Source: Coriobacteriaceae bacterium (GTDB taxonomy: Bacteria; Actinomycetota; Coriobacteriia; Coriobacteriales; Atopobiaceae). From it: a stretch of DNA of 64,000 nucleotides. Location of the stretch: contig SFGZ01000004.1 in NCBI GenBank assembly GCA_004557505.1, positions 23,866 through 87,865 on the forward strand. The letters run 5' to 3'. Positions 6,428 through 52,967 of this stretch are shown one piece after another (position 1 is the first letter of the stretch; every line of letters begins with the position of its first letter). Both the position numbers and the translations under genes were made by a program. The notes beneath the pieces are model-generated. The model was not told where the DNA came from and searched no databases. It saw only the letters and a list, made by a program, of their open reading frames with translations.

Positions 6428-7053
6428 GGGGATATGCGACCAAGGTGTGCCCCCGTTGCGGAGAGGAGCTCTTTGCCGACATGCGGGTCTGCTACGGCTG
6501 CCTCTACGAGTTTCCCGCAGGGGGGAAAGGCGTGGCGGTGCCGGTCGGCGAGGCCTCTGCGGCAGGGGACGAGGAGCTTGCTGCGGGGGATGAGGGCCTG
6601 CCCGAGCTCAGGGAGGACGAACCGTTCCTGTGGGATGCGGGCCTGCCGCCTGCGGAGCCGACTTGGGAGGACGACACGCTTGACCTGTCAGACGTTGGCG
6701 AGGCGCCCGGCGTCGGCATCGCTCACGACAGGGGCGTCCGGCCGTCTCGCGAGATCCTCTGCCTGGTGCGCACGCCCTCCGTGGACGTGAGGCTGCCCAT
6801 ACCCGAGGAAGGTCTCGTCGTGGGTCGCGACCCGGCAAGCGACGTCGTCCTCCATTCGCGTGCCGTGTCCCGCTCGCACGTGCGAATACTGCCCGCTGCG
6901 GAGGGTGGGGAGGGCATGCGCGTCGTCGACCTGGGCGCCACCAATCCCGCCATGTATCGCGGAAGGGAGGTGAGAGGGGAGGCCCTCGTTCCCCCCGGCT
7001 GGACGGTCTCCGTCTGCGGTGCATTCGTCACGCCGATATGGTCCAAACCCTGA
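6424..7053 (+). CDS. Zinc-ribbon plus FHA-domain protein
   Basis: ATG 6424 overlaps the DUF192 stop (ATGA). The N-terminus CPRCGEELFADMRVCYGC is a CxxC...CxxC ribbon. The C-terminus LVVGRDPASDVVLHSRAVSRSHVRI...VDLGATNPAMYRG is an FHA core. Confidence 0.75.
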   Translation: MRGYATKVCPRCGEELFADMRVCYGCLYEFPAGGKGVAVPVGEASAAGDEELAAGDEGLPELREDEPFLWDAGLPPAEPTWEDDTLDLSDVGEAPGVGIAHDRGVRPSREILCLVRTPSVDVRLPIPEEGLVVGRDPASDVVLHSRAVSRSHVRILPAAEGGEGMRVVDLGATNPAMYRGREVRGEALVPPGWTVSVCGAFVTPIWSKP

Positions 7054-7120
7054 TCCGTGCTCTGGTATTCTGGGATCGCGATGCCACAAGATCTTTTGCA
7101 ACCATGCATTGGGGGATCCT

Positions 7121-9130
7121 ATGAGAGAACGGCACCATGCTTGTGCCCCAAGGCGTCATCGGCTGGCGCTTCTAGCGCTTTCGCTGCTGGCAGCTCTTCT
7201 CGTCCTGGTGTTCGACGCTACCCCGGCGCGCGCCGATGACTACAGCATGACGCAGACGGACATCAACGCCACGCTTGACTCGTCGGGCGGCCTCACCGTG
7301 ACCGAGGTGCGTGCGTTCGACTTCAGCGGCGACTTCCATGGCGTCTACTGGAAGATCCCCAAGGGGAAGAACGGCTCCAACGGCCGCACGGTGAGCGTGC
7401 AGGTGCTTGGTGCCGGCGTGGTGGAGGATGGGCAGACGAGGCCGTTCACGGAGTCTTCCTCGGGTGCAAACGAGACCTACTCCATTATGGACGAGGGCTC
7501 CTACCTGCGGGTGAAGCTCTATTCTGCCCAAAGTGACACGGTGGCGCGCTTCTATGTCTCCTACCTTGCCGACGGCATCGCCACGCGATGGTCCGATACG
7601 GGCGAGCTGTACTGGAAGTTCGTCTCGGACGGCTGGGACACCGAGTCCGAGAACGTCACCTGCACCATCCACCTGCCGGTGCCTGATGGCGAGTCGATTG
7701 TGGGCGGGGACAACGTCCGCGCCTGGGGGCACGGCCCCCTGGACGCAAGCTTGGGATTCGACGGGGATGGCGTCGTCTATACCGTCCCCGGCGTTGGCAC
7801 CAGCGAGTATGCCGAGAGCCGCGTCACCTTCCCGGCGAGCTGGGTCTCCGCCTGCCCCGAGACCTCGGGTACCATGCTGAGCACCATCCTCGCGGAGGAG
7901 CAGCGGAACGCAGACGAGGCAAACGCACGCCGCGCCGCAGCGCGCGTGGCCGTATACGGGGTCACGGCAGGCTGCCTTGTCGTTGCCGCGGCGGCGCTTG
8001 TGGCCGCCGTGATTGCAAGGCGCAGGTACAAGGCCAAGCACACGGCGCAGTTCGATGACACGTACTTCCGCGACGTTCCTACGGGGGACCATCCGGTGGT
8101 CCTGGCGCTGCTCGCCTCCGACAATGACGAGCCAAGGCCAGACGGCCTCGTGGCGTCGCTCATGCGCCTCACTGACGAGCACACCGTCCAGCTGGACAAG
8201 GTCAAGGTGAGCAAGAAGAAGATATTCGGGTCGGAGCTGAAGGACGACTACCGGGCATCGATCGTGGGGCCCGTTCCGCAAGGGACGTTTGGCAAGCCCG
8301 CCGAGCGTGAGTCCGCGCGCCGTGCAGACAACGCTGCGGTCGACTTCCTCTTCCGCCACCTTGCCCGTGGGATCAAGGCGCCTAATGACCCCTCGTATAC
8401 GGGTGACGAGCCGGCCCTTTACTTCTCTGCCATCAAGAAGTATGCAAAGTCCTCGCCCGAGGCGTACTCCGACGCCTACCAGGCATGGCAGTCCTCGATC
8501 AAGGCGGAATACCTTCGGCGCTTCTCTGGCAACGGCTCCCTCAGGGGGACGGGCCGCGGCGTAGCTGTCGGGCTTGGCGCGCTCTCCGTCCTCGCAGCCG
8601 TCGTGGAGCTGTTTGTCGTCGGGGTTATATTCGAAGGAATCCTGCTCGCCGTTGGCGTCACTGCCATCTGCGTGGCCTGCGCCGTTCTCTCGCTGTGCCT
8701 GGTAGGCGGTGGGTTCTTCAAGGACATCAGCGCCGAGGGCATTGAGACCAAGGCCAAGGTCCTTGCCCTCAAGCGCTGGCTCCAGGAGTTCACCCGCCTC
8801 GACGAGGCGGTGCCGAGCGACGTCATCCTCTGGAACCGCCTCCTGGTGATGGCGGTGGCCCTTGGCGTTGCGGACAAGGTCATCGAGCAGCTCAAGGTCA
8901 CGATGCCCGAGCTCATCGACGATCCGGACTTCATGCCAGTCTATGGCTGGTACTACATTGGCCAGTCGGGCGGGGGCTCCCCCGCAGACGTCTTCAGCGG
9001 CGCCCTCCACGACGCCTCGATGGCGGCGGTCGCCAACTCGGTCGACGCCAGCGGCGGTGGCGGCGGTGGCGGCTTCTCCTCCGGCGGCGGGGGCGGCTTT
9101 GGCGGGGGCGGGGGCGGCGGCGCCTTCTGA
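7121..9130 (+). CDS. DUF2207-like membrane protein with C-terminal poly-Gly tail
   Basis: ATG 7121 follows GGGGGA. It has a signal/TM segment (LALLALSLLAALLVLV) and an extracellular beta-rich N-domain (TQTDINATLDSSGGLTVTEVRAFDFSGDFHGVYWKIP). Several TM helices follow, then the tail GGGGGGGFSSGGGGGFGGGGGGGAF, as in DUF2207 proteins. Confidence 0.7.
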   Translation: MRERHHACAPRRHRLALLALSLLAALLVLVFDATPARADDYSMTQTDINATLDSSGGLTVTEVRAFDFSGDFHGVYWKIPKGKNGSNGRTVSVQVLGAGVVEDGQTRPFTESSSGANETYSIMDEGSYLRVKLYSAQSDTVARFYVSYLADGIATRWSDTGELYWKFVSDGWDTESENVTCTIHLPVPDGESIVGGDNVRAWGHGPLDASLGFDGDGVVYTVPGVGTSEYAESRVTFPASWVSACPETSGTMLSTILAEEQRNADEANARRAAARVAVYGVTAGCLVVAAAALVAAVIARRRYKAKHTAQFDDTYFRDVPTGDHPVVLALLASDNDEPRPDGLVASLMRLTDEHTVQLDKVKVSKKKIFGSELKDDYRASIVGPVPQGTFGKPAERESARRADNAAVDFLFRHLARGIKAPNDPSYTGDEPALYFSAIKKYAKSSPEAYSDAYQAWQSSIKAEYLRRFSGNGSLRGTGRGVAVGLGALSVLAAVVELFVVGVIFEGILLAVGVTAICVACAVLSLCLVGGGFFKDISAEGIETKAKVLALKRWLQEFTRLDEAVPSDVILWNRLLVMAVALGVADKVIEQLKVTMPELIDDPDFMPVYGWYYIGQSGGGSPADVFSGALHDASMAAVANSVDASGGGGGGGFSSGGGGGFGGGGGGGAF

Positions 9131-10844: not shown

Positions 10845-13800
10845 ATGGCACGCACACACGGGACACCCAAGCACATGAAGCAGCAGCTCGACAGGGGCTC
10901 GTTCCGTGCATTCAATGGCGCGCGCGTTGCGGTAACCGCAGGCGTGCTTGCCGCGTCGGTGGGCGTGACCCCAGCGCTTGCCGAGGAGACTACCGCCAAT
11001 GGCGTCGCAACAGAAGAGCCCCCGCCGTTCAGATGTCCTCTGCCAAGACTCCTGCGGAGCAGCGGTCCCAGGCCGAGAAGGACGTGGCCAACGCCCAGGA
11101 CAAGGTCGAGAAGGCCCAGCAGGCGGTCTCTGATGCCAAGGCATCGCAGAAGCAGGAGCAGGACTCCGTCTCGGAGGGCCTGACTAACGTTAAGGACGAC
11201 TCTCCACAGAAGGCGCAGGATGCCCAGAAGGCTGCGGACGATGCCGCCAAGGCCGCAGCTGACAACAAGTCTGCCGCAACCGACGCCCAGAAGGCCGCTG
11301 CCGACGCAGACGCGCAGGCATAGGACGCCGAGAAGGCCGCCGGCGACGCTGCCGCAACCAATCCCTCTGACGAGGAGCTTTCCGGCAAGCAGTCCGCTGC
11401 CGACACGGCCAAGTCTAACCTGGACAAGGCGCAGGCCAGCAAGGATGCTGCCGACAAGGCGGCCAGCCAGGGCCAGAAGGCGGCCGATTATGCCAAGGCA
11501 GCAAAGGATGCTGCAGACCAGGCCGTCAAGAACGACCAGGCTGCCGTCTCCAACGCCGAGGCGGAGCAGAAGGCTGTCAATAGCGCCCAAGCCGGCGCTC
11601 CGTCGCAGTCCGACGTCGACGCCCTTGCCGGCGAGGCGAGCGATGCCCAGAAGGCGCAGGCCAATGCCGGTGACACTGCCGCTGCCAAGGACGCCGAGAA
11701 GAACGCGGCCGAGACGGCGCAGAAGTCCGCTCACGACAACGCGGACAAGCTCGCTGCCGAGCATGCCACGGATGCTGCAAACGAGAAGGACGCCAAGTCT
11801 GCCTACGATGAGGCACAGGGCAAGTCTGCCACATCCGAGCAGGCCGTAAAGGACGCCCAGGCAAAGAAAGACGCGGCTCAGGAGGTGCTTGACAAGGCCA
11901 CCGACCCCAACGTCAAGTCCAACCTCGACAACGCCCAGAAGGCGGAGGATGCGGCCAAGTCTGCCGCCGACGCTGCGAAGGCGTCTGAGGACGCCGCCCA
12001 AAAGGTCGTGGACAACGCAAGCAAGGCGCTCTCCGATGCCCAGAAGGCAGCTGTCGACGCGCAGGCCAAGGTCGATGCCGCTGCCAAGGCGCTCTCTAGC
12101 GCCAATGCAACCAAGGCCGAGAAGGACCAGGCTGTCACCGATGCCCAGACTGCCGTTACGGCAGCGGAGCAGGCCGTGAAGGACGCCCAGGCCGCATACG
12201 ACAAGCTGCCCGAGGACAAGAAGGCGCTCACTGCCGTCGAGTTTCTCGACAAGTACTCCGCCGGCACGTATACACAGCGCAAGCAGGAGGCCATCGAGAA
12301 GTACGGTTCGCAGTTTGGCGCGGATGTCGTGGATGGCAAGACGGCTGCCTACGACATGATTTCTCGCTCGCTCGACCTCATCGACGAGCTCAACAAGATC
12401 AGGAATGCCTATGGTCTCTCGACCCTCAAGGTCTCCGGCAAGCTCATGGCTGACCAGGCCGTCGAGGCAGATCTTAATGACGGGACCAATGGCCGCGCAG
12501 GTCATTCAGCTGTTTCGAAGGCAGCCGGACGCAACCTTGCCTGGGGTTCCTACGACCCCTACGGCACTCCCGTCAATGGGGACCTTACCAAGTGGCAGTT
12601 AGACGGGTGGATGGGGGAGCAGAACCTCTGGTACGAGGCCAAGGCAAAGGTGCCTAATGGCGGCTCGTTTACTTTCGAGGGCAAAAGCTACGCTCTGCCT
12701 TCCAACTGGCAGTCTCTGAGCACGTACGATCTCTCAATTTATTGCAATAAAAACACCAAACAAGGCGATGCGAACTTCTATCAGGGAGTTGGCCACTACC
12801 TCAACATCATTGAGAAGGATGTCAATTTTGGGGTCGCAGGCATTGGCACAAGCCCAACCTCCTACCTTGGAGGAAATACCCATGCGCTCGGTATGGGGTA
12901 TTACGACTCGCAGTATTACAGTAAGAGCATGTCCAACGCCGATGACACCATCTGCTCCGTTGACGAGTACCGCGCGCTGATGAACGAGGCCAAGCGCTCG
13001 ACGCACGACAAGGCCGACGCCCTCGCCAAGCTCAACGAGTCCAAGGATGCGCTGGCTAACCTCAAGGCGGCGCTCGCGACTGCCCAGACCGAGGCCAAGG
13101 ACGCCGCGGATGCTGTCACCAAGGCGACATTTGCAAAGCAGGCTGCAGACGGCGAGAAGGACGCTGCAGACGCAGTGGTAACGGCTGCCCAGAGCGACCT
13201 CTCGGCTGCCAAGGACAAGCTCGCCTCTGCGCAGAAGGACTACTCCGCCAAGCAGGCGGCCTACGAGAGCGCCGCAGCCAACACCGCCCAGGCCCAGAAG
13301 GCCTACGATGCGGCTACCAGCGGTCTCCAGCAGGCCAAGGATGACCTTGCCACCGCTGGCGCTCAGCGGAGCCGTTTCCGCGCACGACGCCGACGTTGCT
13401 GCCGAGAAGGACGCCAAGGCGGCGTACGAGAAGGCAAAGGCTGCTGCTGGCGCATCCGCCTCGCGACTGTCAGACGCAAATGCTGCGCTCGCAAAGGCCA
13501 AGACGGACGCGGCTACCGCGCAGGATGCCTCAGACAAGGCCAACGCTGCATACGAGGTAGCCAAGGCCAACTACAACGAGAAGCTCCAGGCCTATAACGC
13601 AGCCAAGTCGCGCCGTGACGCTGCGGTCGACCGGGTCCAGAAGGCAAACGACGCGCTCGCGGCCGCTCAGACGAAGCTCCAAGACGACACGAAGGCTGCC
13701 CAGGCGGCAGCCGGTGCCTATTCCGATGCGGCTTCTCGTGCCGACGATTCCACCAAGAAGGCATCCGACGCCGGCGCTGCCCTCGACAAGGCAGCTGCTG

Positions 13801-21512: not shown

Positions 21513-21537
21513 GGCAGGGGGACCGCCCCTTGTCTCA
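21510..21537. repeat. Stop-codon-overlapping palindromic element, copy a
   Basis: TGAGGCAGGGGGACCGCCCCTTGTCTCA. The first TGA is the tannase stop codon. The arms pair with two G:U on the plus-strand RNA. Confidence 0.8.
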
Positions 21538-34756: not shown

Positions 34757-34796
34757 GCCAAAGGGAGCCCCCTGTCTCGTTAGATGTTTGATGAAT

Positions 34797-39769: not shown

Positions 39770-39795
39770 GAGACAAGGGGACCGTCCCTCTGCCC
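39770..39795. repeat. Palindromic element, copy d
   Basis: GAGACAAGGGGACCGTCCCTCTGCCC, upstream of pcrA. It is nearly identical to copy e. Confidence 0.65.
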
Positions 39796-39886: not shown

Positions 39887-42421
<2,535 letters not shown>

Positions 42422-42439: not shown

Positions 42440-42468
42440 TGAGACAAGGGGACAGTCCCTCTGTCTCA
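42440..42468. repeat. Palindromic element, copy e
   Basis: TGAGACAAGGGGACAGTCCCTCTGTCTCA. The right-arm TCA (42466-42468) is the TGA stop of the minus-strand gene 42466..43461. Confidence 0.8.
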
Positions 42469-43461
42469 TAGGTACTCAGAGACGATTTCCGAACACGTCT
42501 CCCTGTATGATTTCTCTGCGTCGGGTGACTCGACATAGAGGTCAACCTTGCAGGCGGCAGCAAAGGTCACGTCCGGCAGAGCCTTCAGCGCCTCAACGAG
42601 CGGTTGGTTGTCCTTTTGTTCGTCATTTTGTTCAGATGTCGTCCCAAAAGGTACAGGTGTATTCTCGACAGCGCCCTCTTCTGTGGGAAGGTTTGCGCAG
42701 AATACTCTCGGCCTCGAGACATCTCCATCTTGGATTGGAATGCGCCCGTAAAGACTTGTCACAATGCCGAACCGCGCATCCTCCACACCGGATATGTCTG
42801 CATTTGATGTGCAGTTGAGAAAGAACAGGTACGTTTCCCCAGATCTCAGGGGCGTGAAGAAGTTTGCATACAGGCTGCGACCTGAACTTGGGCACACCTC
42901 CCTGACAGACCCCCCATCGGCTGCCGAGGAACTAGCAGGCTGAATTGCAAACTCGTCGTACACGCATATGACATCGCCTTCCGTCAGATCAAGCTTTGGC
43001 AGGGCATATGTCTCCCCGCGAGAAGTTGCCTTCGACGTTTCGCTGAGAGGAACAATGATTCTCTCCACGACAACGTTTGTTACAAAGGTGCCGTAGCGAT
43101 ACACGCGATTCTGCGTCACCCTCCCTACAACTACCAGGTCGGCCAGAAGGCCCGGGTCACGGGGCTGCATACCAAGCCGTGCTGACATCTGCGGAATCGT
43201 TGCCGTGCTCAGCATCGCATCTTCCGAATATCGTTCTCTCCAAGCAGACCTAATCTCGTCTTCTCCATATGTCTTTGTCAGCTTCTCTGGTACATATGAC
43301 GCTTGGAATGCAAAGCCATCCAAGGCATTTGCATCCGCATTGACGTTGGTCAAGCTGCTCCTAAACAGTATTGATCCTACCAGCAACGCTAGGCAGCACA
43401 GTGCGAACGCGCTTCCCGGTAGAGCATCCACTACGCGCCTGCGCAGCTCATACCCCATCAT
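42466..43461 (-). CDS. Hypothetical N-terminally anchored extracytoplasmic protein (331 aa), last gene of the low-GC operon
   Basis: The start is trimmed to MMGYELRRRVVDALPGSAFALCCLALLVGSILF (Arg-rich, then a TM helix), with GGGGG upstream. It overlaps the ABC ATPase stop by 14 nt. No family was recognised. Confidence 0.55.
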   Translation of the reverse strand: MMGYELRRRVVDALPGSAFALCCLALLVGSILFRSSLTNVNADANALDGFAFQASYVPEKLTKTYGEDEIRSAWRERYSEDAMLSTATIPQMSARLGMQPRDPGLLADLVVVGRVTQNRVYRYGTFVTNVVVERIIVPLSETSKATSRGETYALPKLDLTEGDVICVYDEFAIQPASSSAADGGSVREVCPSSGRSLYANFFTPLRSGETYLFFLNCTSNADISGVEDARFGIVTSLYGRIPIQDGDVSRPRVFCANLPTEEGAVENTPVPFGTTSEQNDEQKDNQPLVEALKALPDVTFAAACKVDLYVESPDAEKSYRETCSEIVSEYL

Positions 43462-44119
43462 GACTCTGCCCCCAATCTGATATCCGCCCCTCAGAAAGAG
43501 TGATGCAGCAGTCAAAGAGCTCTTCGAGCTGGGGCTGGTTGTGGCAGGACACCAAGACGGTTGCACCGCGTCGCGCCTGAGACGTAATCACCTCTTTAAT
43601 AAGTATGGCTCCGTGTTTGTCAAGGGCGTTGGTCGGCTCGTCAAGAATGAGAAGGTCGGGATGCTCCATAATCGCCTGGGCAATGGCAAGGCGCTGTCTC
43701 ATACCCGCACTGTATGAGGAAGTTGGGCGTTTATCCGAAGGGTCAAGCCCAACAGACCTCAGCGCCTCTTTGACCTCTTCCTCGCCAACTAGCTTACGGA
43801 TACTGGCCAGGGCTTCTAGGTTCTTGAGTCCGCTTAGCTCTTCCCAATACCCTGACGAATCCAGCATAATCCCCAGATTGACAGGGTAAGGCCTTCTCCT
43901 GCTTACCTCCTTTCCGTCAACTGAGATTGACCCGCTGTCAATCTTCACAAGGGAGGCAATCGCACGAAACAGCATTGATTTTCCCGATCCGTTGCTGCCC
44001 ATGATGCCCGCAATGGCCCCCTTGGGAACGGAGAACGATATGTCATCAAGCACTAACCTGCCTCGAAGTGCCTTTGTGACTTCGTTTGCTGACACATAGT
44101 CCATACAGGGCCTCCTCAA
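43448..44119 (-). CDS. ABC transporter ATP-binding protein
   Basis: Walker A GSNGSGKS, signature YSAGMRQRL, Walker B LLILDEPTNALD and H-loop SCHN. The start overlaps the upstream stop by 4 nt. Confidence 0.88.
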   Translation of the reverse strand: MRRPCMDYVSANEVTKALRGRLVLDDISFSVPKGAIAGIMGSNGSGKSMLFRAIASLVKIDSGSISVDGKEVSRRRPYPVNLGIMLDSSGYWEELSGLKNLEALASIRKLVGEEEVKEALRSVGLDPSDKRPTSSYSAGMRQRLAIAQAIMEHPDLLILDEPTNALDKHGAILIKEVITSQARRGATVLVSCHNQPQLEELFDCCITLSEGRISDWGQSHDGV

Positions 44120-44892
44120 AGAACATCAAGACGCCTTACCTTGCAGAGAAGCAGCGCAAGAGCTACCAAACCGAGCAGCGCAAGATAAGCACATGAGATA
44201 ACGTACGAATGCACATCGAGACCCACGCTCGTGACAGGCCCCCCAAAAGAGAGGCCGTGGACCGCCATAAGACTATGGAAGCTCGGCAGCACAGCAAGCA
44301 CAAGGGCAAAGGTGCGCGGATCCAAAAGAGTTATTGCAAACAAGGAGCCCAATCGCACCATCGCTGTCAGGACACCTGTGAGCACTCCACTAACGCTGTT
44401 TGCGAGCAGCGTCCCTGTCAAAACAGCAAAAAAGAGATATAGGGAGCTGAGAAACTGGGACCCAGATATCAAGGGGAGCGCGCGTATGGCTGCGTCTCTA
44501 CCATACAGAGCAATCATGAGCATAATAATTGCCACTTCAGCTGCGATATGCATAAGAGCATCAGACGCAAGCAGGCAAGCCACTCCCCGCATCGTAGGCC
44601 GCCTCATTCCGCCACAACGGGGCATAAGCAGCGCTCCACGTTCCCGCAAGTCGCTTAGGGGCCTTCCCACCAAAAGATACAGCTCAAGCATCATTGGAGC
44701 GGCAAAGGCCAGCTGCTCAAAGACAGCAGATCCATCATAAAACGCCTTGGCGTAGCAGGCACCCGCCATAACATTGACGAGAGCGATTTCGGGGCTGTAG
44801 ATGAGATATGCAGATACACAAGCAAACTGCACTACAGCGCAGACAGCTATGACATGCACATCAGTTCGCGTTATCAGAGGAATCTGGGTCAT
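44116..44892 (-). CDS. Polytopic membrane protein (ABC-2 permease-like?), unknown family
   Basis: About 6 hydrophobic helices. The start is trimmed to ATG 44892, 4 nt after the upstream stop. Assignment is by context only. Confidence 0.55.
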   Translation of the reverse strand: MTQIPLITRTDVHVIAVCAVVQFACVSAYLIYSPEIALVNVMAGACYAKAFYDGSAVFEQLAFAAPMMLELYLLVGRPLSDLRERGALLMPRCGGMRRPTMRGVACLLASDALMHIAAEVAIIMLMIALYGRDAAIRALPLISGSQFLSSLYLFFAVLTGTLLANSVSGVLTGVLTAMVRLGSLFAITLLDPRTFALVLAVLPSFHSLMAVHGLSFGGPVTSVGLDVHSYVISCAYLALLGLVALALLLCKVRRLDVL

Positions 44893-44896
44893 GGAC

Positions 44897-45631
44897 CTAC
44901 TCCACGCTAGTACGATAGTAGTCACGTTCCTGCGACGCCAGATAGAGCAGGAGAAGTCCGATGCCACACCAACCAAATAAGCGACCAACAGCAGCAAGGG
45001 CATCCGGCGGACTCAAGAGAATGGCCGAGACATTTGTCCATCCAATATTGGCAAACCACATCCCTCTGAGCGGAGACATCGCAAGGAAGTAATCTGACAA
45101 TCCATAGGCAAAGGCCACCAGCACCGCCGTGCTCGCTCTGGTGGAGCCCAGTACATACACGACAAGCATCAGGAGGGCACAGCTCATAAAGAAGAGAGTG
45201 AATCCAGCATACTCCGCCGCGAAGAAAAGCACGGACAGACCACCCTCTAGAGTTGGGACACCAGATATCCAGAAGAAAACGCCCTCGCACGCGAGCAGCA
45301 ATGCCGAATAGAGAAGAGACACGGAAAACGCTACCGCTGTCGCTACCGCAATTCCCGATGACACCCCGCCACGTCGCACGATTTGCGGAACGCTTCCTAC
45401 AAAGACGAGGATGGGATAAGCCAAGATGAGAAAGGCAGGGTTATACATAATTCCTGCATACAGCCCATGGTTGACCCCTTCAAATAAACGAACAAACGCG
45501 ACATCGCCCATGGCTGTCATATCATCTCTCATGACCATCACGTAGCCAAGCGCCACAGCGCCAATGGTAACCAGGATGCTCAGTGGCACGCGATGCCTCA
45601 GAGAGCGAAAGTAGCCCAGAAGACCGCTCAT
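44897..45631 (-). CDS. Polytopic membrane protein (ABC-2 permease-like?), unknown family
   Basis: 244 aa with about 6 hydrophobic helices. It has an ATGA overlap with the upstream gene. Confidence 0.55.
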   Translation of the reverse strand: MSGLLGYFRSLRHRVPLSILVTIGAVALGYVMVMRDDMTAMGDVAFVRLFEGVNHGLYAGIMYNPAFLILAYPILVFVGSVPQIVRRGGVSSGIAVATAVAFSVSLLYSALLLACEGVFFWISGVPTLEGGLSVLFFAAEYAGFTLFFMSCALLMLVVYVLGSTRASTAVLVAFAYGLSDYFLAMSPLRGMWFANIGWTNVSAILLSPPDALAAVGRLFGWCGIGLLLLYLASQERDYYRTSVE

Positions 45632-46521
45632 ATATAATCCCCTCGCACAATATACTGGTGCACCAAAATTGCACCTACGCAGAGAACGAGCAGACAGACG
45701 GGAGCAAGCAACGTAAGAAGCAGAGTCTGCCCTTCAGCATGGGAGACGCTTATCAGCAGGCTGGATGTTGGGTTGATCGGGACTGGCAGGACTTGACTTG
45801 ACAGCAGAAGCAACGCCGTAGGAAAGGCGAGGACCAAGAGACTACCTCTTCTTACAAAGAGCGAGATAGCAAATGAGAGCAGAGCCATAACACCCATGTA
45901 AAATGCGTCGTACAACATATATGCAGCATTAAATAGGTATGGATTCATACCTGCAAGAGGGCCAAAGGGAAGCCGAGAAAGATACGACATTCTCGTCTCC
46001 ATCTCAGCCGCATTGCTCAGATATCCTATCTGAAAGGAGTCTACGTCGGCTTGCACGGGAAATACGAAGAACGCCATCAGCTGTGAGACAAGTTCGAACA
46101 GAAGAACAAATAGAAATGACGAGAGAAAGACGAGGAGCGCCGACGAAACGATATAGGCGTCAGGTGATGTGCGGGAGACGAGGGCAGGCAACCGTGCGGT
46201 CTGGGTATCTTGTAAGAGCACATCTCCGTAAAGCGAGCAGGCAAGAATCGGTATGATAAGCAGCACGCAAAAGACCCAGAGATAGGTGTGCATGCTCTCG
46301 TAGTTTCCCATCCATCCCACGGCCGCAGACGGCAGCTCGCCAGTATCGTGAGCCCAAAATCGCGAGAGACCCTGGAGAAAAACTACCGTTATGGCGGCGA
46401 AGCAAATGGCTGTCGCGAATTTTAAGCGTCTCGAAGCAAACAGCAGCTTAGCTTTGACGCGAAGCAGAGAAACAGCGGCCATAGGCACCCCTCTCATGGG
46501 CGCATGGAGCCATCCCTCCAT
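45628..46521 (-). CDS. Polytopic membrane protein (ABC-2 permease-like?), unknown family
   Basis: About 6 hydrophobic helices. The better RBS (GAGAGGGG) precedes the internal ATG 46482 (MAAVSLLRVKAKLLF), so the true start may be 46482. Confidence 0.55.
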   Translation of the reverse strand: MEGWLHAPMRGVPMAAVSLLRVKAKLLFASRRLKFATAICFAAITVVFLQGLSRFWAHDTGELPSAAVGWMGNYESMHTYLWVFCVLLIIPILACSLYGDVLLQDTQTARLPALVSRTSPDAYIVSSALLVFLSSFLFVLLFELVSQLMAFFVFPVQADVDSFQIGYLSNAAEMETRMSYLSRLPFGPLAGMNPYLFNAAYMLYDAFYMGVMALLSFAISLFVRRGSLLVLAFPTALLLLSSQVLPVPINPTSSLLISVSHAEGQTLLLTLLAPVCLLVLCVGAILVHQYIVRGDYI

Positions 46522-46541
46522 GCGCCCACATATATCGGTCT

Positions 46542-46943
46542 TTATCCGTTGAGGTCATACCAGCCGGTTACATAATCGGATATAGGCCCATTTCCGATGG
46601 CACGTCCATAGAGGGTGGCGTAACCTCCATAGGCTCTTGCATGAGCATTAACGTAAGCTCCCCACGTATACTCTCCCCTTTCGAGGTCAATACCGGCTCC
46701 TATATACGTTCCGCTATCGTCATCGACCCAGAAATGCCCTCCGTTTGGCGAAGAGGACGAGAGTTCAACATAGTACGTCGTGCTACCCGCAGTCTTGTTT
46801 GCCCCCGCGCACCACCCTCTGCCCTGCCACGCGGGAAGTGTCGCTTCAAAATAGGTTCCCGCCATGGCTGAGCCAGCAAAGCTCAAGACACATGCCAAGC
46901 CGAGAAGGATAGAGAAAATGGCCGTCCTTGTCCTGTTCCTCAT
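46542..46943 (-). CDS. Small secreted Gly/Tyr/Trp-rich protein (133 aa precursor), first gene of the low-GC operon
   Basis: Sec signal MRNRTRTAIFSILLGLACVLSFAGSAMA/G, with GGAAAGGA as RBS. The mature protein is about 105 aa, aromatic/Gly-rich and net acidic by my count. No family was recognised. Confidence 0.65.
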   Translation of the reverse strand: MRNRTRTAIFSILLGLACVLSFAGSAMAGTYFEATLPAWQGRGWCAGANKTAGSTTYYVELSSSSPNGGHFWVDDDSGTYIGAGIDLERGEYTWGAYVNAHARAYGGYATLYGRAIGNGPISDYVTGWYDLNG

Positions 46944-47191
46944 GGTTGCGTCCTTTCCTCAGAAGAAGCCTCCGCTACTCAAACCCAATCGGAGACGCTT
47001 GAATTCCTTGAAAAGAAGGTACAGCCTCTGAGGAGGTGTCAGATACCAGTCCCACCTGCCCCCCCTCTTGCTGAACAGCACAACTCTCACCACCATTCAA
47101 ACAGTGTCATGTTTAAGTCTTATCCTATATGGTTCTTACCAATGTGGAGCTTCCGTATTTGTTAGTGGCAATTTCTTTGCGATGAATGACA

Positions 47192-47218
47192 TGAGACAAG
47201 GGGACAGCCCCTGTCCCA
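47192..47218. repeat. Palindromic element, copy f
   Basis: TGAGACAAGGGGACAGCCCCTGTCCCA. The first 16 nt are identical to copy e. Confidence 0.75.
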
Positions 47219-47400
47219 GACGTATCACAAATGCATAACCAATACGCATGGGTAGCTGCACTTATCGATGCTTCGCTACCCCCCGCGGATCTCTGCGTCA
47301 CTCGTTGGCGCCACTCCTTTAGTCTGACGCATGCGAAGTGCCGCTCGCCCAAGGGCGGATGCCTTCATAGCCCAGATGCCCCGGAGAAGAGGAGTGCGCC

Positions 47401-50400
47401 GTGAGAAGAAGCGAGGTCCTGAGGAGCGTATGCGCGGCCATGGTGACGTTTGCCCTCGCGACGCAGTCGCTACCCGCCGTGGCCCTTGCCGCAAACAGGG
47501 GGCCTGCCGGAGGGGGAGTGAGCGTCACGAGCGACGCTGCCGCCCATACCGTGACCATTGGCAACGGCGACATCTCGCGCACGTTCTCGACTGCCGACGG
47601 ACGGCTTGCCACGACCCTGCTCTCCAATGGCCGCGCAGGCGTGACGTTTGACCCCGCGGATGGCAGCGAGGAGTTTGTCGTCCGCGTCGTGAGGCAGGCC
47701 AGCGCCGGCAAGCCTGCCGCTCCGGAGGCGCTCTCCCGCGAGGGCTGGACTGCCACCGACGACTCCCACGCAAAGGCGGGCAACAGCGACGGCCCCGCCC
47801 AGCTCCTACTCGACGGCGATGTCAACACCAACTGGAGCACGTGGTACCAGGATGGGAATGGCGTGGACGGCCAGCGCCAGGAGTACCCCTTCTCCGTGGT
47901 CATCGACCTCAACGGAGAGAAGAGCTTCTCGGCCTTCTCCATGACGCCCCGTCCGCAGGGCCCCGCAATCAACGGCAACAGCAAGGGCTACAAGCTCTAC
48001 GTCTCCACATCTGCCGAGAAGCTCGACGCAGGCTCCGCCGCCTGGGGCAACCCCGTGGCCGAAGGCGAGTTTACCTACGATGGGACCGACCCGGCATACG
48101 TGAACCTCGACCACGCCCAGACGGCGACGCAGGTCAAGCTCGTGGTGACCTCCAACACCGCGGGCAACAACATCGCGGGGGGCGCGGAGTTCAACCTCTA
48201 TCCAACCGCGGTGGCGATGCCCACCAGCGAGCTCGAGTTCTCTGCGAGCGACCTCGAGCTCGCTGGCGATCCGGTGGTCGCAGACACCACCGCCACCATC
48301 AACGGCGAGGCGAAGACGGGCAAGAAGCTCACCTTCAACTTCAGGCCCTATGCCTTTGGCGGCAACGGCGTCACCTACACCATCAGCGAGAACATCGTAA
48401 TGTACGAGGGCGACCACTACATGCGGAAGTACCTCGACATCTCCGTGCCCGCCGGCCAGGCGGGGAGCGCGGCCATCGACTACATAGACCTCGAGCACCT
48501 GGGGACGAGCGGGGCCGACGCCACGTGGACCATCCCCCACGTGGGAGGCGTCGTGCAGATGGACCAGTTCAAGGCCAACCTCGGGCAGCCCATCTACATC
48601 CAGGGCATGTTCTTTGGATGCGAGTTCCCGGCCACCGACACGCAGATCGAGGACGGCCTCGGGCACATCCGCTACTACACCGGCAAGGACTTCAATCGCC
48701 TCGCGGCCGACGGCCAGGCCGCGGCTGACGAGGCGGGCAACATCCACTACAACACGTGGCAGACGGTCGTCGGGGCCGCACGCAGCACCGACGCCTCGGT
48801 CGTGCAGTCAGACTTCTTCGATTACATCAATGACATCGCGACGCCCTCGGAGTTCCGCATCCAGTACAACTCCTGGTTCGACAACATGATGAAGATCGAC
48901 GACAAGAACATCCACGACTCCTTCATCGAGGTCGATGCGCAGCTCGACGCCGTAGAGACGCGCCCTCTCGACTCCTACGTGGTGGATGACGGCTGGAACA
49001 ACTACAACAACACCGACGCCTCGGTGGACGTCTCGAAATCCGGCGTAGGCAAGAACACCGAAGGTTTCTGGGCCTTCAACTCCAAGTTCCCCCAGGGGCT
49101 TACCCCCTCCAGCAAGCTGGTGGAGAACTTTGGCAGCAGCTTTGGCGTATGGGTGGGACCCCGCGGCGGCTACAACTTCTATCCCAACCTTGCCGACATC
49201 CTCACCGCGAGCGGCAGGGGCTCAAAGGCCGGATGGTCGATTGACGTGGCAGACCGCACCTACGTCAGGAACTTCCTCGAGATGGCCTGCGACTGGCAGG
49301 ACAGGTATGGCGTCAACTACTGGAAGTGGGACGGCTTTGTCGACAAGGCCCAGTACGCCCACTTTGGCGCCGCCCGGGACGGCGTTCCCGGCTACGCGAA
49401 CAACCACATGACCGGCGGCTACAACAACATGTACCACGTGACCGACCTGTGGGAGGCCTGGATCGACCTCTTCGAGGGGGTGCGCGCAAACGCCGCCAAG
49501 AACGGCATCGACGACCTGTGGATCTCGCTCACCTGCTACGTGAACCCCAGCCCATGGTTTTTGCAGTGGGCAAACTCCGTGTGGATCCAGGACGTCTACG
49601 ACCAGACCGATGCCGGCGAGGGTGACAGCAAGCTCGACAGGCAGCTCAACTACCGCGACGCCATGTACTACGACTTCATCAAGAACCACCAGTTCCAGTT
49701 CCCGCTCTCCCACATCTACAACCACGACCCCATCTACGGCAAGGAAGGCACGAACATCACCAGGGACACTGCCACCGACGAGCAGTTCCAGAACTACCTC
49801 TACGCGCAGAGCGGCCGCGGCACGGCCTTCTGGGAGCTCTACTACTCCGAGAGCCTCATGACACAAGGCAAGTGGGAGGTGACCGCCGAGTTTCTCGACT
49901 GGGCGGAGCAGAACCACCACGTCCTTTCCAAGGCCAAGATGTTCGGCGGCTCTCCCGCATCCAACGCCCGTCTCGACAGCACCAACACCAGCGGCGCGGC
50001 CCACACATACGGCTACTCCGCCTTCGACGGCGAGCAGGGCATCGTGGTGCTGCGCAACCCCGCAACGTCGAGCCAGCAGGTCTCGTACGCCTTCAATGAC
50101 ACCAACGGCGTCCCTGCGGGCTCGGGCAGCTACGTCTACCACATCGAGCATGCCCACAAGCACGACGAGTCGCATGACGGCATCGCCCAGACGGGCACGC
50201 TGGAGTACGGCACGACCTACACCTGGACGCTCGACGCAGGCGAGGCCCTCGTCCTCATGGTCTCCAAGGAGGCGGACACCCAGGCACCTGCCATCGAGCG
50301 CGTGTCCAGCGACGGCGCGGGCAACCTCACGGTCCGCTTTGACGAGAAGGTCATGGGCTCCCCGGAGTTCACGGTGAATGGGGAGAGGCTCTCCGGCGCC

Positions 50401-52308
50401 TCGGTCACGGCCTCCGCGGACGACGCCACCTTCCGCCTGGCCCTGGGCTCTACGCCTGAGGATGGGACACGACTCGAGGTCGCCGTGGCCGGCCTTGCGG
50501 ACCTCTCCGGCAACTCCGCGGATGGTGCCACGGGCTCCGTCGTCTTCCGCGCGGGCGGCGTGGTGGTGGAGCGCGGCGCCACGAGGCTCGGGACCTCCCC
50601 CAAGACCATCGCCCCTGCCGAGGGCGCCCTTGACTCCCCGAACGGCTTCACGGTCTACTCGCGCTTTGCCGGGTCTGGGGCCGGGGCCCTGGTGAGCCAG
50701 GCGGATGGTTACGAGCTTGGCATCGAGTCCGACGGCACCCCATATTTCTCGCTGGGGGAGGCCCGCGCGACCTCTTCCGCCGTGGTGAACGACGGCCAGC
50801 CGCATACGCTTGCGGGCGTGCGCGAGAACAACGGCATGCTCAAGCTCTACGTCGACGGCAAGCTCGCCGGCTCCTCCTGGCGAGCCGAGAACCGCTATCG
50901 CAAGGTGTCCCCCGCTCCCATCCTGCTGGGCGGCGGCTCTCTTGCCGGCAGCGCGACGGCGAAGGTCTTCGACAGCGCATACGCCTACGACGACGTTGCC
51001 CGCCTCCACGACGCGGACCTGCCCGACAGCTCCGAGCGCAACCTGGCGAGCGGCGTTGTCCCTACGGCAAGCTGGACCGCCGATGGCTCCGCGGCGAAGA
51101 CCAACGCGGACCGGCCGCTCTCCAACATCACCGACGGGCTGAAGGACGACACGAACAACTATGGCGAGTTTGGCGACGACAACCGTGCCGAGGGCTCCTA
51201 TGTCGAACTCGACCTGGGCAGCGTCTACGACATCAGCGGCGTGAACCTCTGGCGCTACTGGTTGGACAGGCGCGTCTACGAGAACACGGTGGTCGCCCTC
51301 TCGCAGAGCGAGGACTTCTCCAGCCCCACGGTTCTGTACAACTCCGATGCCGGCAACGCGCAGGGCCTGGGTGCCGGCTCCGACGAGACGTACGAGGAGA
51401 CCCCCTCTGGCAGGTCGTGGACGGCCCCCGAGGGGACGCGCGCTCGGTACGTGCGCGTTTACATGCATGGGCGCGCCAATGGGCAGGGCAACACAAACCA
51501 CATCGTGGAGCTCGAGGTCATGGGGCACGCGTCTGCCGCGGCCACCGATCCCATCGACGTGTCCGAGCTTGACGCCCGCATTGCGGAGCTCGACCAGCTG
51601 CTCTCGGCAGACTCCGAGCACACCACCTCGAGCGTCGCGACGGTCGCCGAGCAGGTCGCCCGGGCGCGCGAGGTCGCGGACTACCCGCAGACCAAGGAGA
51701 ACGTTGCGGCCGCCCTGGCAACGCTCGCAGACATCGAGAAGAGCCTGGTGCCGCGCGCCGACCCTGCCGCAGCCAACGCGCTTCTCTCCCAGCTTGACGG
51801 TGCCGCGCTTGAGGAGGGCGACTACACGCCCGAGAGCTGGGCCGCCCTCGGAAAGGCCCGCGCTGCCGTAGAGGCCGTGCTCGCAGACCTCTCCGACGTG
51901 AGCCAGTCGGAGCTCGACGCCCTCGTGGATGCCCTCGCCGCGGCGCGCGAGGGCCTTGCGCCCGCCGGCGAGGAAGGCCCCCGGGGCCCTGAGGGCCCAG
52001 CGGATCTAGGCGACGAGGGAGGCTCTGCCGACGTGTCCCAGCCGCAAGGTCCTGGTGACGCAGGGACCACCGGAGGCTCCAACGCCCCCGGTGACGCCAA
52101 CGTCCCCGACGGCTCCAACGCCCCCGGTGACGACAAGACTGCCGGAGACGCTGCCTCAAGGCGCGCCACAGACCGCCCGGTCGCGCCAGCCCGTCCCACC
52201 GTACCCAACACGGGGGACCAGGCCGGCGTGGCCCTTCCCATGGCCCTCGTGGCCGCCGGCGCGTGTCTCGGGCTTCTCGGCACTATCTGGCGTCGTCGCC
52301 CTGTGTGA
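47401..52308 (+). CDS. Cell-wall-anchored multidomain glycoside hydrolase (F5/8-type-C/CBM32-like x2, melibiase-like TIM barrel, LamG-like, FIVAR-like repeats, sorting signal)
   Basis: GTG start with signal peptide VCAAMVTFALATQSLPAVALA.
- Discoidin-like block: LLLDGDVNTNWSTWY...YKLYVS.
- Catalytic-looking blocks YVVDDGWNNY and VNYWKWDGF, a DDGW / KWD pattern as in clan GH-D alpha-galactosidase-type enzymes.
- LamG-like: GQPHTLAGVRENNGMLKLYVDGKL.
- Second discoidin block: ARYVRVYMHG...IVELEVMG.
- FIVAR-like: GDYTPESWAALGKARAAVEAVL.
- C-terminus: VPNTGD, a hydrophobic stretch, then RRR. Confidence 0.75.
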   Translation: MRRSEVLRSVCAAMVTFALATQSLPAVALAANRGPAGGGVSVTSDAAAHTVTIGNGDISRTFSTADGRLATTLLSNGRAGVTFDPADGSEEFVVRVVRQASAGKPAAPEALSREGWTATDDSHAKAGNSDGPAQLLLDGDVNTNWSTWYQDGNGVDGQRQEYPFSVVIDLNGEKSFSAFSMTPRPQGPAINGNSKGYKLYVSTSAEKLDAGSAAWGNPVAEGEFTYDGTDPAYVNLDHAQTATQVKLVVTSNTAGNNIAGGAEFNLYPTAVAMPTSELEFSASDLELAGDPVVADTTATINGEAKTGKKLTFNFRPYAFGGNGVTYTISENIVMYEGDHYMRKYLDISVPAGQAGSAAIDYIDLEHLGTSGADATWTIPHVGGVVQMDQFKANLGQPIYIQGMFFGCEFPATDTQIEDGLGHIRYYTGKDFNRLAADGQAAADEAGNIHYNTWQTVVGAARSTDASVVQSDFFDYINDIATPSEFRIQYNSWFDNMMKIDDKNIHDSFIEVDAQLDAVETRPLDSYVVDDGWNNYNNTDASVDVSKSGVGKNTEGFWAFNSKFPQGLTPSSKLVENFGSSFGVWVGPRGGYNFYPNLADILTASGRGSKAGWSIDVADRTYVRNFLEMACDWQDRYGVNYWKWDGFVDKAQYAHFGAARDGVPGYANNHMTGGYNNMYHVTDLWEAWIDLFEGVRANAAKNGIDDLWISLTCYVNPSPWFLQWANSVWIQDVYDQTDAGEGDSKLDRQLNYRDAMYYDFIKNHQFQFPLSHIYNHDPIYGKEGTNITRDTATDEQFQNYLYAQSGRGTAFWELYYSESLMTQGKWEVTAEFLDWAEQNHHVLSKAKMFGGSPASNARLDSTNTSGAAHTYGYSAFDGEQGIVVLRNPATSSQQVSYAFNDTNGVPAGSGSYVYHIEHAHKHDESHDGIAQTGTLEYGTTYTWTLDAGEALVLMVSKEADTQAPAIERVSSDGAGNLTVRFDEKVMGSPEFTVNGERLSGASVTASADDATFRLALGSTPEDGTRLEVAVAGLADLSGNSADGATGSVVFRAGGVVVERGATRLGTSPKTIAPAEGALDSPNGFTVYSRFAGSGAGALVSQADGYELGIESDGTPYFSLGEARATSSAVVNDGQPHTLAGVRENNGMLKLYVDGKLAGSSWRAENRYRKVSPAPILLGGGSLAGSATAKVFDSAYAYDDVARLHDADLPDSSERNLASGVVPTASWTADGSAAKTNADRPLSNITDGLKDDTNNYGEFGDDNRAEGSYVELDLGSVYDISGVNLWRYWLDRRVYENTVVALSQSEDFSSPTVLYNSDAGNAQGLGAGSDETYEETPSGRSWTAPEGTRARYVRVYMHGRANGQGNTNHIVELEVMGHASAAATDPIDVSELDARIAELDQLLSADSEHTTSSVATVAEQVARAREVADYPQTKENVAAALATLADIEKSLVPRADPAAANALLSQLDGAALEEGDYTPESWAALGKARAAVEAVLADLSDVSQSELDALVDALAAAREGLAPAGEEGPRGPEGPADLGDEGGSADVSQPQGPGDAGTTGGSNAPGDANVPDGSNAPGDDKTAGDAASRRATDRPVAPARPTVPNTGDQAGVALPMALVAAGACLGLLGTIWRRRPV

Positions 52309-52940: not shown

Positions 52941-52967
52941 GAGACAGGGGGGCTGCCCCCTTGTCTC
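52941..52967. repeat. Palindromic element, copy g
   Basis: GAGACAGGGGGGC-T-GCCCCCTTGTCTC, preceded by the half copy GAGACAGGGGA at 52927-52937. Confidence 0.75.

Follow-up and report, generated by a model that had tools for sequence, protein, structure and literature searches.

The described systems closest to the locus reported here are the LanFEG transporters with their partners LanI and LanH, the orphan CprABC transporters, loci of the lactococcin 972 (Lcn972) type, and NosDFY(L) and other type V/VI machines (LptB2FGC, TarGH, and KpsMT). LanI and LanEF(G) act jointly, sometimes with the accessory protein LanH, and Lcn972 is a class IId bacteriocin that forms no pores and binds lipid II (PMC8538875). 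In the 64-kb stretch of DNA analyzed here (the window), a 4.7-kb foreign-looking block is a copy of a conserved, uncharacterised six-gene cassette encoding a small secreted protein (g1), three membrane proteins (perm1, perm2, and perm3), a single ABC ATPase, and an outer protein anchored in the membrane (g6). Our preferred reading, to which we assign a probability of about 0.4, is that the cassette may encode a protein toxin secreted through Sec together with an ABC-2 complex for self-protection, and that the window holds an acquired, regulator-less copy of it.

The six ORFs lie co-directionally on the minus strand at 42466-46943 and are tightly packed, as the preliminary description of this DNA had reported. 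The 4-nt overlap at 45628-45631 (perm1/perm2) and the 14-nt overlap at 43448-43461 (ATPase/g6) are both real, while a third, at 44116-44119, depends on TTG 44119 being the ATPase start (223 aa) and disappears with ATG 44104 (218 aa), the start used in public gene calls. The low G+C content noted earlier was also confirmed, with GC of 0.50 to 0.55 over 42500-47250 against 0.64 to 0.75 outside; likewise, GC3 is 0.53 to 0.58 in the block compared to 0.85 to 0.92 in pcrA, nox, U32, and the glycosidase gene. The low-GC leader region upstream of g1 (46944-47191, minus strand), presumed to hold the promoter, contained no strict sigma-70 consensus match on the minus strand and no Rfam match. As first noticed from the sequence, only the ATPase can be assigned: it is the sole product with a Pfam, NCBIfam, or PADLOC match, and the other five proteins returned none from these collections. 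The suggestion of a defence module was not upheld, as no test, including the PADLOC search, places the cassette in an anti-phage defence family.

The ATPase (43448-44104 from the ATG, minus strand) matches PF00005 with an E-value of 1e-31. Its best NCBIfam match is the lantibiotic-protection ATPase TIGR03740, at 152 bits versus a cut-off of 310, followed by DrrA and CcmA; the earlier view of a block built around an ABC ATPase stands, the ATPase being LanF-like by best match, with a score under the family cut-off. The cassette further resembles LanFEG and CprABC in that its membrane subunits are separate proteins of ~250 aa with ~6 TM segments each, and in that g6, a tethered extracytoplasmic protein, occupies the LanI position. 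Unlike those systems, it has not two but three membrane subunits, all different and none with a MutE/MutG or ABC-2 Pfam match; no lanthipeptide precursor or modification genes lie near it, and the secreted product linked to it is an unmodified ~105-aa protein that depends on Sec. With Lcn972-type loci, the cassette shares the order of a Sec-signal beta-rich protein, membrane protein(s), and ATPase, and the ATPase matches TIGR03608 (L_ocin_972_ABC) with an E-value of 4e-29, although at 101.6 bits versus a cut-off of 254.85. The Lcn972 locus, however, encodes one 7-TM membrane protein of ~600 aa, whereas the cassette encodes three of ~250 to 285 aa and adds the anchored g6. In addition, g1 is acidic and has no match to the Lactococcin_972 family, and no lactococcin 972 structure appears among its 50 listed Foldseek matches. 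On these comparisons, the cassette is neither a LanFEG system nor a member of the lactococcin 972 family.

Perm1 (284 aa, 45628-46482, minus strand; 297 aa if started at 46521) contains the motif FWGHDxGELPSAAxxWxGN, which is invariant or nearly so across its family and falls in a segment predicted to lie between the first two TM helices. When its AlphaFold2 model (pLDDT 81.3, pTM 0.85) was searched with Foldseek, the top matches were NosY (7o0y and 7znq; TMq 0.53 to 0.58, probability 1.0), then LptF/G, ABCG, KpsM, and TarG, with E-values of at least 0.08 and sequence identities of 11 to 16%. The modeled fold thus resembles ABC-2 (type V) transmembrane domains, the likeness to NosY being one of fold class only, and this agrees with the earlier view of the membrane proteins as permease-like. 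Perm2 (244 aa, 44897-45631, minus strand) and perm3 (258 aa, 44116-44892, minus strand; alternative start at 45003) are polytopic, with ~6 TM segments each; no family match was obtained for perm2, and one perm3 orthologue matched ABC2_membrane_4 weakly (E = 0.05). Because the two are fused into a single protein in two relatives (L026 and L045), they probably act as a pair. The last product, g6 (331 aa, 42466-43461, minus strand), has one N-terminal TM anchor (~residues 14-32) followed by an extracytoplasmic domain of ~290 aa; it had no match in Pfam, NCBIfam, PADLOC, PHROGs, or PDB sequences, and its orthologues occupy the same slot in every related cassette.

The structural matches of perm1, together with two extracytoplasmic proteins, one anchored (g6) and one soluble (g1), also recall machines that handle a cargo, such as NosDFY-NosL, LolCDE-LolA, and LptB2FGC-LptA. 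By analogy, an ABC-2 exporter would pass a hydrophobic or envelope molecule (for example, a lipid, glycolipid, or cofactor) to g6 and g1, and g1 would be a carrier or acceptor rather than a toxin. We consider this unlikely. The perm1 matches are not significant at the E-values above, Pfam and NCBIfam searches found no NosD, NosL, LolA, LptC, or other Lpt family match in the cassette, it has no linked N2O-reductase, LPS, teichoic-acid, or capsule genes, and linked genes for biosynthesis or related to a cargo are absent from all the loci examined.

The g1 gene (46542-46943, minus strand) encodes a precursor of 133 aa that carries a Sec-type signal peptide (...SAMA/GTYFE). The predicted mature protein of ~105 aa is rich in Gly, Tyr, Trp, Ser, and Thr, with a pI of 4.6 and a net charge of about -5; its protein family is tiny. 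The AlphaFold2 model (pLDDT 79.6) is a beta-sandwich of ~9 strands, for which we sought and did not find a specific structural relative, the Foldseek matches being generic beta-sandwiches alone (FlgD, CBM6/36, and Ena among them), every one with a TM-score below 0.5. Between g1 and perm1 lies a perfect 13-bp GC-rich stem-loop (46497-46528, minus strand) with a folding energy of -32.3 kcal/mol (z = -6.2), from which we infer a partial terminator or mRNA stabiliser. An equivalent stem-loop of unlike sequence is present in 9/9 loci examined, and every g1-bearing locus examined keeps g1 as the first gene with a stem-loop downstream; this conservation among unrelated sequences supports g1 as an overproduced product. 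Several observations argue against a toxin, namely that mature g1 is anionic, unlike typical cationic bacteriocins, that it exceeds the size of class II peptides, that its fold search returned only generic matches, and that no homology to a LanE/G permease or to a known bacteriocin or immunity protein was detected in any non-ATPase component. The acidic, non-amphipathic character of g1 instead suits a carrier, as does its likely excess behind a stem-loop, an arrangement often found for periplasmic partners. Between this copy and the other regulator-less one (L024), g1 is the most conserved cassette protein, at 61% compared to 55% for the ATPase, a pattern as consistent with an interaction partner as with a toxin.

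The gene order g1-perm1-perm2-perm3-ATPase-g6 was found in about 12 lineages, including loci L010-L013, L015, L024/L025, L027, L028, and L032; the titled carrier genomes are uncultured Olsenella or Atopobium. This shared order marks the cassette as a genuine, conserved unit, so far seen in just a few Atopobiaceae-type gut bacteria. The earlier remark that the block contains no regulator holds for the window's copy, and L024 lacks one as well, whereas most relatives encode, upstream, a LuxR/GerE regulator with multiple TM segments and another secreted protein (g0). No meaningful alignment was obtained between the sequences upstream of the window's copy and of L024. In L032, g0 and g1 have a GC3 of 0.36 to 0.40 versus 0.75 to 0.82 for the transporter genes, a disparity that suggests module swapping. 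Four lineages have lost an intact g1 and retain an intact transporter and g6: g1 is absent from L026 and L045, frameshifted in L047, and truncated in L046, which is 96 to 97% identical to L015 and differs by one clean 717-bp deletion that reaches from g0 into g1, removing 3' sequence of the former and 5' sequence of the latter, and leaves the five genes downstream intact.

Loss of the toxin with retention of immunity is the expected pattern in bacteriocin loci, and the g1-less lineages fit it. They also count against g1 as an obligate cargo acceptor, which should be indispensable, and would fit just as well if g1 were a dispensable accessory of any kind. A further reading takes up the LanF-like ATPase, the absence of toxin-biosynthesis genes, the persistence of the transporter in g1-less variants, and the one-component regulator directly upstream in most relatives: the cassette would be an inducible module for resistance or detoxification, of the orphan Cpr/LanFEG type, in which the LuxR membrane regulator senses an external antimicrobial (such as a peptide, bile-like, or plant compound), the ABC-2 complex and g6 expel it or shield against it, and g1 and g0 serve as secreted decoys or binders. 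This appears quite improbable to us, as two copies lack the regulator, the first position and stem-loop of g1 are conserved, a decoy role is ad hoc, and the narrow distribution (24 clusters of the perm1 family among 5.8 billion proteins) would be unusual for a general resistance pump.

The toxin-plus-immunity reading draws its backing, which is indirect, from the stem-loop after g1 and from the lineages that lose g1 and keep the transporter; the nearest family of the ATPase and the ABC-2/type V-like perm1 support a self-protection complex. The operon would be transcribed from upstream of g1, and the strong stem-loop would keep g1 mRNA above transporter mRNA. The signal peptide and predicted fold suggest Sec export of g1 and its release as an acidic ~11-kDa beta-sandwich; outside the cell, this protein could be a bacteriocin-like toxin that targets related bacteria. 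The LanF/DrrA-like ATPase would drive an ABC-2-type complex of perm1, perm2, and perm3, the fold assignment applying to perm1 alone, and this complex, with anchored g6 in the role of LanI in lantibiotics, may clear the toxin from the producer's envelope.

The borders of the low-GC DNA coincide exactly with two palindrome copies. The left copy, TGAGACAAGGGGACAGTCCCTCTGTCTCA (42440-42468), lies between the convergent pcrA and g6 genes and forms a hairpin of -18.5 to -21 kcal/mol; the last 3 nt of its right arm (TCA, 42466-42468) supply the g6 stop codon, as described previously. The right copy, TGAGACAAGGGGACAGCCCCTGTCCCAGA (47192-47220), is in direct orientation relative to the left one, degenerate, and weakly folding, and host-level GC returns just past it. 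Both begin, as stated before, with an exact TGAGACAAGGGGACAG (42440 and 47192), which with up to 2 mismatches has 4 matches versus 0.03 expected, and they have 21 nt in common with 1 mismatch. The bracketing claimed earlier is hence correct in that direct repeats sit at the exact low-GC edges, but the palindromes are not island-specific: the seed GAGACARGGGG has 7 matches in the 64-kb window versus 0.07 expected, with further sites at 21526, 34768, 39770, and 52941/52957.

Such recurrence at other intergenic sites raises the possibility, doubtful though substantial in our estimate, that the palindromes are ordinary species-wide terminator or REP-like copies that do not mark mobility, the island having arrived by homologous recombination or in an old, unrelated event. 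In keeping with this, the flanking copies share just about 21 to 30 nt, the ORF list and a Pfam search revealed no integrase or transposase inside the block or adjoining it, the full-length cassettes elsewhere lack flanking repeats, and no empty site was found. Ordinary repeats leave unexplained the exact coincidence with the low-GC edges and the position of the right copy between the divergent g1 and glycosidase genes, an unexpected site for a terminator. They also do not account for the independent insertion of L024, which adjoins tRNA-Leu(caa) between ~62-nt direct repeats of host sequence; a host hairpin and the final 11 nt of udk fall within these repeats, and therefore no dispersed element is involved there. 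The repeats consist of local host sequence and differ from one genome to the other, which makes a fixed attP site unlikely. The foreign composition, the repeats at both ends, and the tRNA-adjacent sister copy liken the block to integrase-less islets with flanking direct repeats (tRNA-adjacent islands and insertions into REP-like palindromes), although no conserved element ends were found.

Horizontal acquisition, as first proposed, is favored by the foreign composition and terminal repeats of this copy and does not extend to Olsenella/Atopobium relatives, where the GC of the cassette is near-native and its site, adjoining pta, recurs. The idea of a strain-variable island was not borne out either, since within the sampled population every contig long enough to show the site carries the cassette. 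Among 8 strains, the island shows a nucleotide diversity of 0.0013, and flanking genes show 0.003 to 0.011. By analogy with L024, the cassette may have inserted at the terminator-like palindrome that follows pcrA and so have come to carry one palindrome copy at each end, and the low island diversity suggests a recent sweep through the species. Judged by composition and genomic position, the cassette is native in the Olsenella/Atopobium relatives and foreign in this genome.

The six-gene low-GC cassette is genuine and conserved, has a very narrow distribution and includes five proteins without a family; it may encode a secreted protein toxin together with a self-protection complex, a reading to which we assign a probability of about 40%. 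The six genes were read on the minus strand at 42466-46943, as the preliminary description had it, and public annotations of identical contigs give matching boundaries. From first to last, the operon consists of g1, encoding a small Sec-secreted protein (46542-46943, 133 aa); three membrane protein genes, perm1 (45628-46482, 284 aa, or 297 aa from 46521), perm2 (44897-45631, 244 aa) and perm3 (44116-44892, 258 aa); the ATPase gene (43448-44104, 218 aa); and g6, encoding an anchored outer protein (42466-43461, 331 aa). Of three overlaps reported earlier, the ATGA at 45628-45631 and the 14 nt at 43448-43461 are present, whereas the one at 44116-44119 exists only with a TTG-started ATPase. GC content is 0.50-0.55 between ~42470 and 47250, compared to 0.64-0.75 outside and a window mean of 0.652, and per-gene GC3 is 0.53-0.58 in the block versus 0.85-0.92 in the pcrA, nox, U32 peptidase and glycosidase genes. 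By both measures the composition of the island deviates from that of the host, in keeping with its earlier description as horizontally acquired. The block lies between pcrA, nox and the U32 peptidase gene on one side and genes for an F5/8-type-C glycosidase, MscS and LuxS on the other. A scan for sigma-70 and terminator consensus sequences gave matches no more numerous than chance.

Scans of the six proteins and of orthologue sets against Pfam, NCBIfam, PADLOC and PHROGs confirmed that the ATPase alone has a recognisable family. It contains a complete ABC_tran domain (PF00005, E=1.1e-31, with all 137 model positions covered) with the motifs GSNGSGKS, YSAGMRQRL and LLILDEPT. Its best NCBIfam family is TIGR03740 (galliderm_ABC, lantibiotic-protection) at 152.2 bits, below the curated cut-off of 309.75, followed by DrrA and CcmA; against TIGR03608, from the lactococcin 972 system, it scored 101.6 bits, below the cut-off of 254.85. 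Judged by these scores, the ATPase falls in the ABC-2/LanF/DrrA branch, with no family assigned. The proposed likeness to LanFEG holds for the nearest ATPase family, but the cassette is not a LanFEG system, as the ATPase score falls below the cut-off and perm1-3 match neither LanE nor LanG. In the PADLOC search the ATPase drew generic P-loop matches only (mad3 and others) and the other five proteins none, so the suggestion of a defence module was not borne out; phage or defence origin was rejected for want of family matches. System I cytochrome c maturation (CcmABC) was considered as well, given that the ATPase comes near the CcmA cut-off (119 vs 132 bits) and that the first loop predicted for perm1 contains a Trp-rich motif. 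It was rejected because no protein matched a Ccm family, and Olsenella-type fermenters are not known to have c-type cytochromes.

The three membrane proteins each have approximately six hydrophobic segments, a predicted loop after the first of these, and, beyond the final TM segment, a terminal motif of the type R-x-D-[VLY]-[LI]; BLASTP and hhalign profile comparison revealed no significant similarity among them. Neither these proteins nor their orthologues matched any NCBIfam or Pfam family, including the LanE/LanG (MutE/MutG) and ABC-2 membrane models, the sole ABC-2 signal being ABC2_membrane_4 at E=0.05 in one perm3 orthologue. The best conserved of the three is perm1, whose predicted first-loop motif FWGHDxGELPSAAxxWxGN is invariant or nearly so in 19 sequences. 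An AlphaFold2 model of perm1 from an alignment of the same 19 sequences reached a pLDDT of 81.3 and a pTM of 0.85, and its top Foldseek matches were almost all type V/VI ABC transmembrane domains, NosY followed by LptF/G, ABCG5/8, ABCG1, KpsM and TarG, with probabilities of 0.8-1.0 and TM-scores of 0.4-0.65 but every E-value at or above 0.08. As modeled, perm1 appears to be of the ABC-2 (type V) class, an assignment that speaks to fold class only. With NosY and LptF/G at the head of these matches, the cassette might instead be a cargo-handling exporter assisted by extracytoplasmic proteins, in the manner of NosDFYL or Lpt, an alternative that we consider unlikely. In two other genomes (locus L026, 8873-10465; locus L045, 2330-3889), which represent a g1-less sub-lineage, perm2 and perm3 are fused as a single 519-530-aa protein. 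Because of this fusion, perm2 and perm3 would probably work as a pair, with perm1 as a third, distinct subunit. An rve-family transposase gene is located ~0.8 kb downstream of the L026 cassette.

The candidate toxin, g1, has a predicted Sec-type signal peptide and a mature part of ~105 aa that is acidic (pI 4.6), with Gly, Tyr, Trp, Ser, Thr or Asn making up just over half of its residues. Its structural model (pLDDT 79.6) is a beta-sandwich of approximately nine strands, for which Foldseek searches of the PDB and viral structures returned generic beta-sandwiches and no specific structural relative. No Pfam or NCBIfam family matched g1 at E up to 1; these include Lactococcin_972, and with the ATPase also below the TIGR03608 cut-off the cassette is not a lactococcin 972 system. 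At the other end of the operon, g6 combines a single N-terminal anchor with an outer domain of ~290 residues, and it too lacked a family match in the Pfam, NCBIfam, PADLOC and PHROGs scans. When profiles of g1, perm1 and g6 were compared with PDB sequences, nothing significant emerged, the one match being for g6 at E=0.087. Several properties argue against a toxin: no homology to any bacteriocin or immunity protein was found, g1 is acidic, and it is strongly conserved, with 61% identity between the two regulator-less copies of the cassette.

Between g1 and perm1, a GC-rich stem-loop is present in all 9 of the loci examined, although the sequences that form it are unrelated. In the window it spans 46497-46528 and folds at -32.3 kcal/mol (z = -6.2). 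A stem-loop after the first gene is characteristic of operons that must supply an excess of their first product, for example bacteriocin precursors, pilins and binding proteins. An Rfam search of the island detected no RNA family in the g1 leader. Full-length relatives of the cassette carry a second Sec-secreted protein, g0, upstream of g1 (L012, 9305-9793; L010, 5790-6269; L032, 7338-7856). This protein of 156-172 aa, absent from the window, has an invariant NGFTKATW and the C-terminus (V/I)AMYSW; it matches Y_Y_Y and Big_3_5 weakly and no other family, and hhalign found no significant homology between g0 and g1.

When 1.84 billion representative proteins were searched exhaustively with g1 by HMMER, no more than four genuine relatives emerged. 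A scan of species-representative genomes with the g1 alignment, which did not return this species' own copy, identified five true loci (three in records named uncultured Olsenella, one named uncultured Atopobium and one 'uncultured bacterium'), and by tblastn and ORF reading each has the six genes in the same order as the window. A perm1 profile search found 24 clusters among 5.8 billion proteins, none of the 24 with a Pfam domain or a name, and a metagenome scan with the close g1 group recovered just two short contigs resembling L024, a regulator-less copy. One further candidate, L014, was rejected as a false positive of the pattern scan, being a Clostridia lipoprotein with the SPNEGHFWIDD motif alone in common. 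Literature searches turned up no report on Olsenella systems of such kind.

The full-length cassette comprises eight genes, i.e., a LuxR/GerE regulator, g0 and the six core genes, the regulator being a multi-TM protein of 580-720 aa with two HTH modules; the window copy and L024/L025 are regulator-less six-gene versions. In several Olsenella-type loci the cassette adjoins pta and its GC is near native, and for this reason we regard that clade as its home. Overall, the window copy is closest to L032, with identities of 68% for the ATPase, 51% for g1, 47.5% for perm1 and 41% for g6. At this locus a mannose-family PTS (EIIAB, IIC and IID) and a DUF956 gene (1623-4972) adjoin the cassette. Man-PTS serves as a receptor for some class II bacteriocins (PMC8538875), but its adjacency to the L032 cassette is probably coincidental. 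Between the DUF956 gene and the cassette regulator (4988-5142), a 31-nt unit (GCCGCAAAGCGC...) is repeated in tandem four to five times.

The 16-mer TGAGACAAGGGGACAG reported at both ends of the block was found at 42440 and 47192. The two palindrome copies are in direct orientation and have 21 nt in common with 1 mismatch; the last three bases of the left copy are the g6 stop codon, and the low-GC DNA begins and ends exactly at the two copies. The preliminary description requires correction on one point, as these copies belong to a dispersed family. The palindrome core has 7 matches in 64 kb against 0.07 expected, and the intergenic family, with consensus (T/C)GAGACAAGGGG..CCCCTTGTCTC, occurs at 21526-21536, 34768-34778, 39770-39780 and 52941-52967 in addition to 42441 and 47193. 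At 52941-52967 two neighboring core matches lie on opposite strands. Folding indicated that both bracketing copies are moderate hairpins only, the right one being degenerate. The element looks like a species-specific REP-like or terminator sequence.

An independent insertion in another genome, L024, lies directly 3' of tRNA-Leu(caa) (tRNA-Leu at 6864-6954 and 7068-7154). It is flanked by direct repeats of ~62 nt (7165-7229 and 12105-12168), 86-90% identical, that include a host terminator hairpin and the last 11 nt of udk and are a genuine duplication of host sequence, which is clear at this locus alone. Neither the window copy nor the L024 copy contains a recombinase gene, and no integrase was found at L024; their upstream regions reveal no conserved element ends, with only RBS-proximal bases aligning, and full-length cassettes are not flanked by direct repeats. 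On these grounds, insertion at a terminator palindrome with target duplication is likely for L024 and plausible for the window copy.

Look-ups with g1, nox and LuxS found the island on every contig of this species that was long enough, with no empty site; exact nox and LuxS look-ups always showed the island. In a comparison of eight strains, the island has a nucleotide diversity of 0.0013 and the flanking genes 0.003-0.011, with 13 segregating sites in 4478 bp of island compared to 159 in 4908 bp of the neighboring glycosidase gene, and g1 is invariant. The simplest reading is that the island's common ancestor is more recent than that of its surroundings, either through recent acquisition followed by spread or through a gene-specific sweep; low-GC DNA under another regime of mutation or selection could also produce such a pattern. 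In g6 the five codons that vary among the 8 strains all do so non-synonymously, with no synonymous change, an odd pattern in numbers too small to test. Among the neighbors, PcrA (39887-42421) comes in 844-aa and 840-aa variants, and the gene for the F5/8-type-C protein (47401-52308, 1635 aa; the 'glycosidase' of the preliminary description) is the most polymorphic of the region, with a nucleotide diversity of 0.011, length variants of 1622, 1623 and 1635 aa, and one strain that is 3.5% different across the first 2.3 kb. The C-terminus of this protein, where a PNTG motif precedes a hydrophobic segment and RRRP, resembles a cell-wall sorting signal.

The secreted-protein genes are lost repeatedly. 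L026 and L045 lack g1 altogether, and in L047 a frameshift, possibly an assembly error, separates the signal peptide of g1 from its mature domain. L046 is 96-97% identical to L015 apart from one clean 717-bp deletion (L046 ~5760; L015 9502-10218) that fuses g0 and g1, with loss of the 3' part of the former and the 5' part of the latter, and destroys both genes, leaving the five downstream genes intact. This variant is not rare, since its perm1 cluster has 728 member sequences. The upstream LuxR regulator of L046 is called as two ORFs of 278 and 384 aa, compared to 665 aa in L015. In this sense g1 is dispensable: the remainder of the cassette can be kept without it. At L032, GC3 is 0.36-0.40 in g0 and g1 (7338-8399), 0.75-0.82 in the transporter genes and 0.93-0.96 in the flanks, and similar dips occur at ~9000-10000 in L011-L013. 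These data suggest that g0 and g1 are exchanged separately from the transporter.

A dispensable g1 is also what might be seen if the cassette were an inducible Cpr-type resistance pump with g1 as an accessory. No lanthipeptide precursor or modification genes were found among the genes flanking the block, but linked genes of this kind are no requirement for orphan Cpr-type systems. We consider this pump slightly less likely than the cargo-handling exporter. A toxin with self-protection is preferred as the best joint account of the LanF-like ATPase, of the design in which a stem-loop follows the first gene, of the repeated loss of secreted-protein genes from cassettes that keep the transporter and g6, and of the cassette's mobility and low diversity within the species. 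In its working, the cassette would be most like the producer-immunity loci of the LanFEG/LanI or Lcn972 type (PMC8538875), although its parts are unrelated to theirs. A more specific version of this reading is rather unlikely as a whole: g1 would represent a new class of Sec-secreted, unmodified, acidic ~11-kDa beta-sandwich toxins of gut Atopobiaceae-type bacteria, protection would be provided by a three-subunit ABC-2 machine and an anchored extracellular immunity protein, and the six genes would form a self-contained cassette that has no integrase, inserts at terminator palindromes and duplicates its target.

ABC exporter operons that sit on small islands together with hypothetical partners are a familiar theme, and if either the exporter or the resistance pump is correct, this would be one more uncharacterised operon of that kind, of limited general interest. 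Whatever its function, two recombinase-less insertions at host terminator sequence, with duplication plausible for the window copy, offer a modest but concrete lead on how integrase-less islets move. We know of almost no characterised antagonism systems in Coriobacteriia-type gut bacteria. If toxin and immunity is the true function, the cassette would add a bacteriocin-like protein family and a three-subunit ABC-2 architecture for immunity, both of them new, and the reduced diversity of the island compared to its flanks would reflect a competitive trait sweeping through a gut species.
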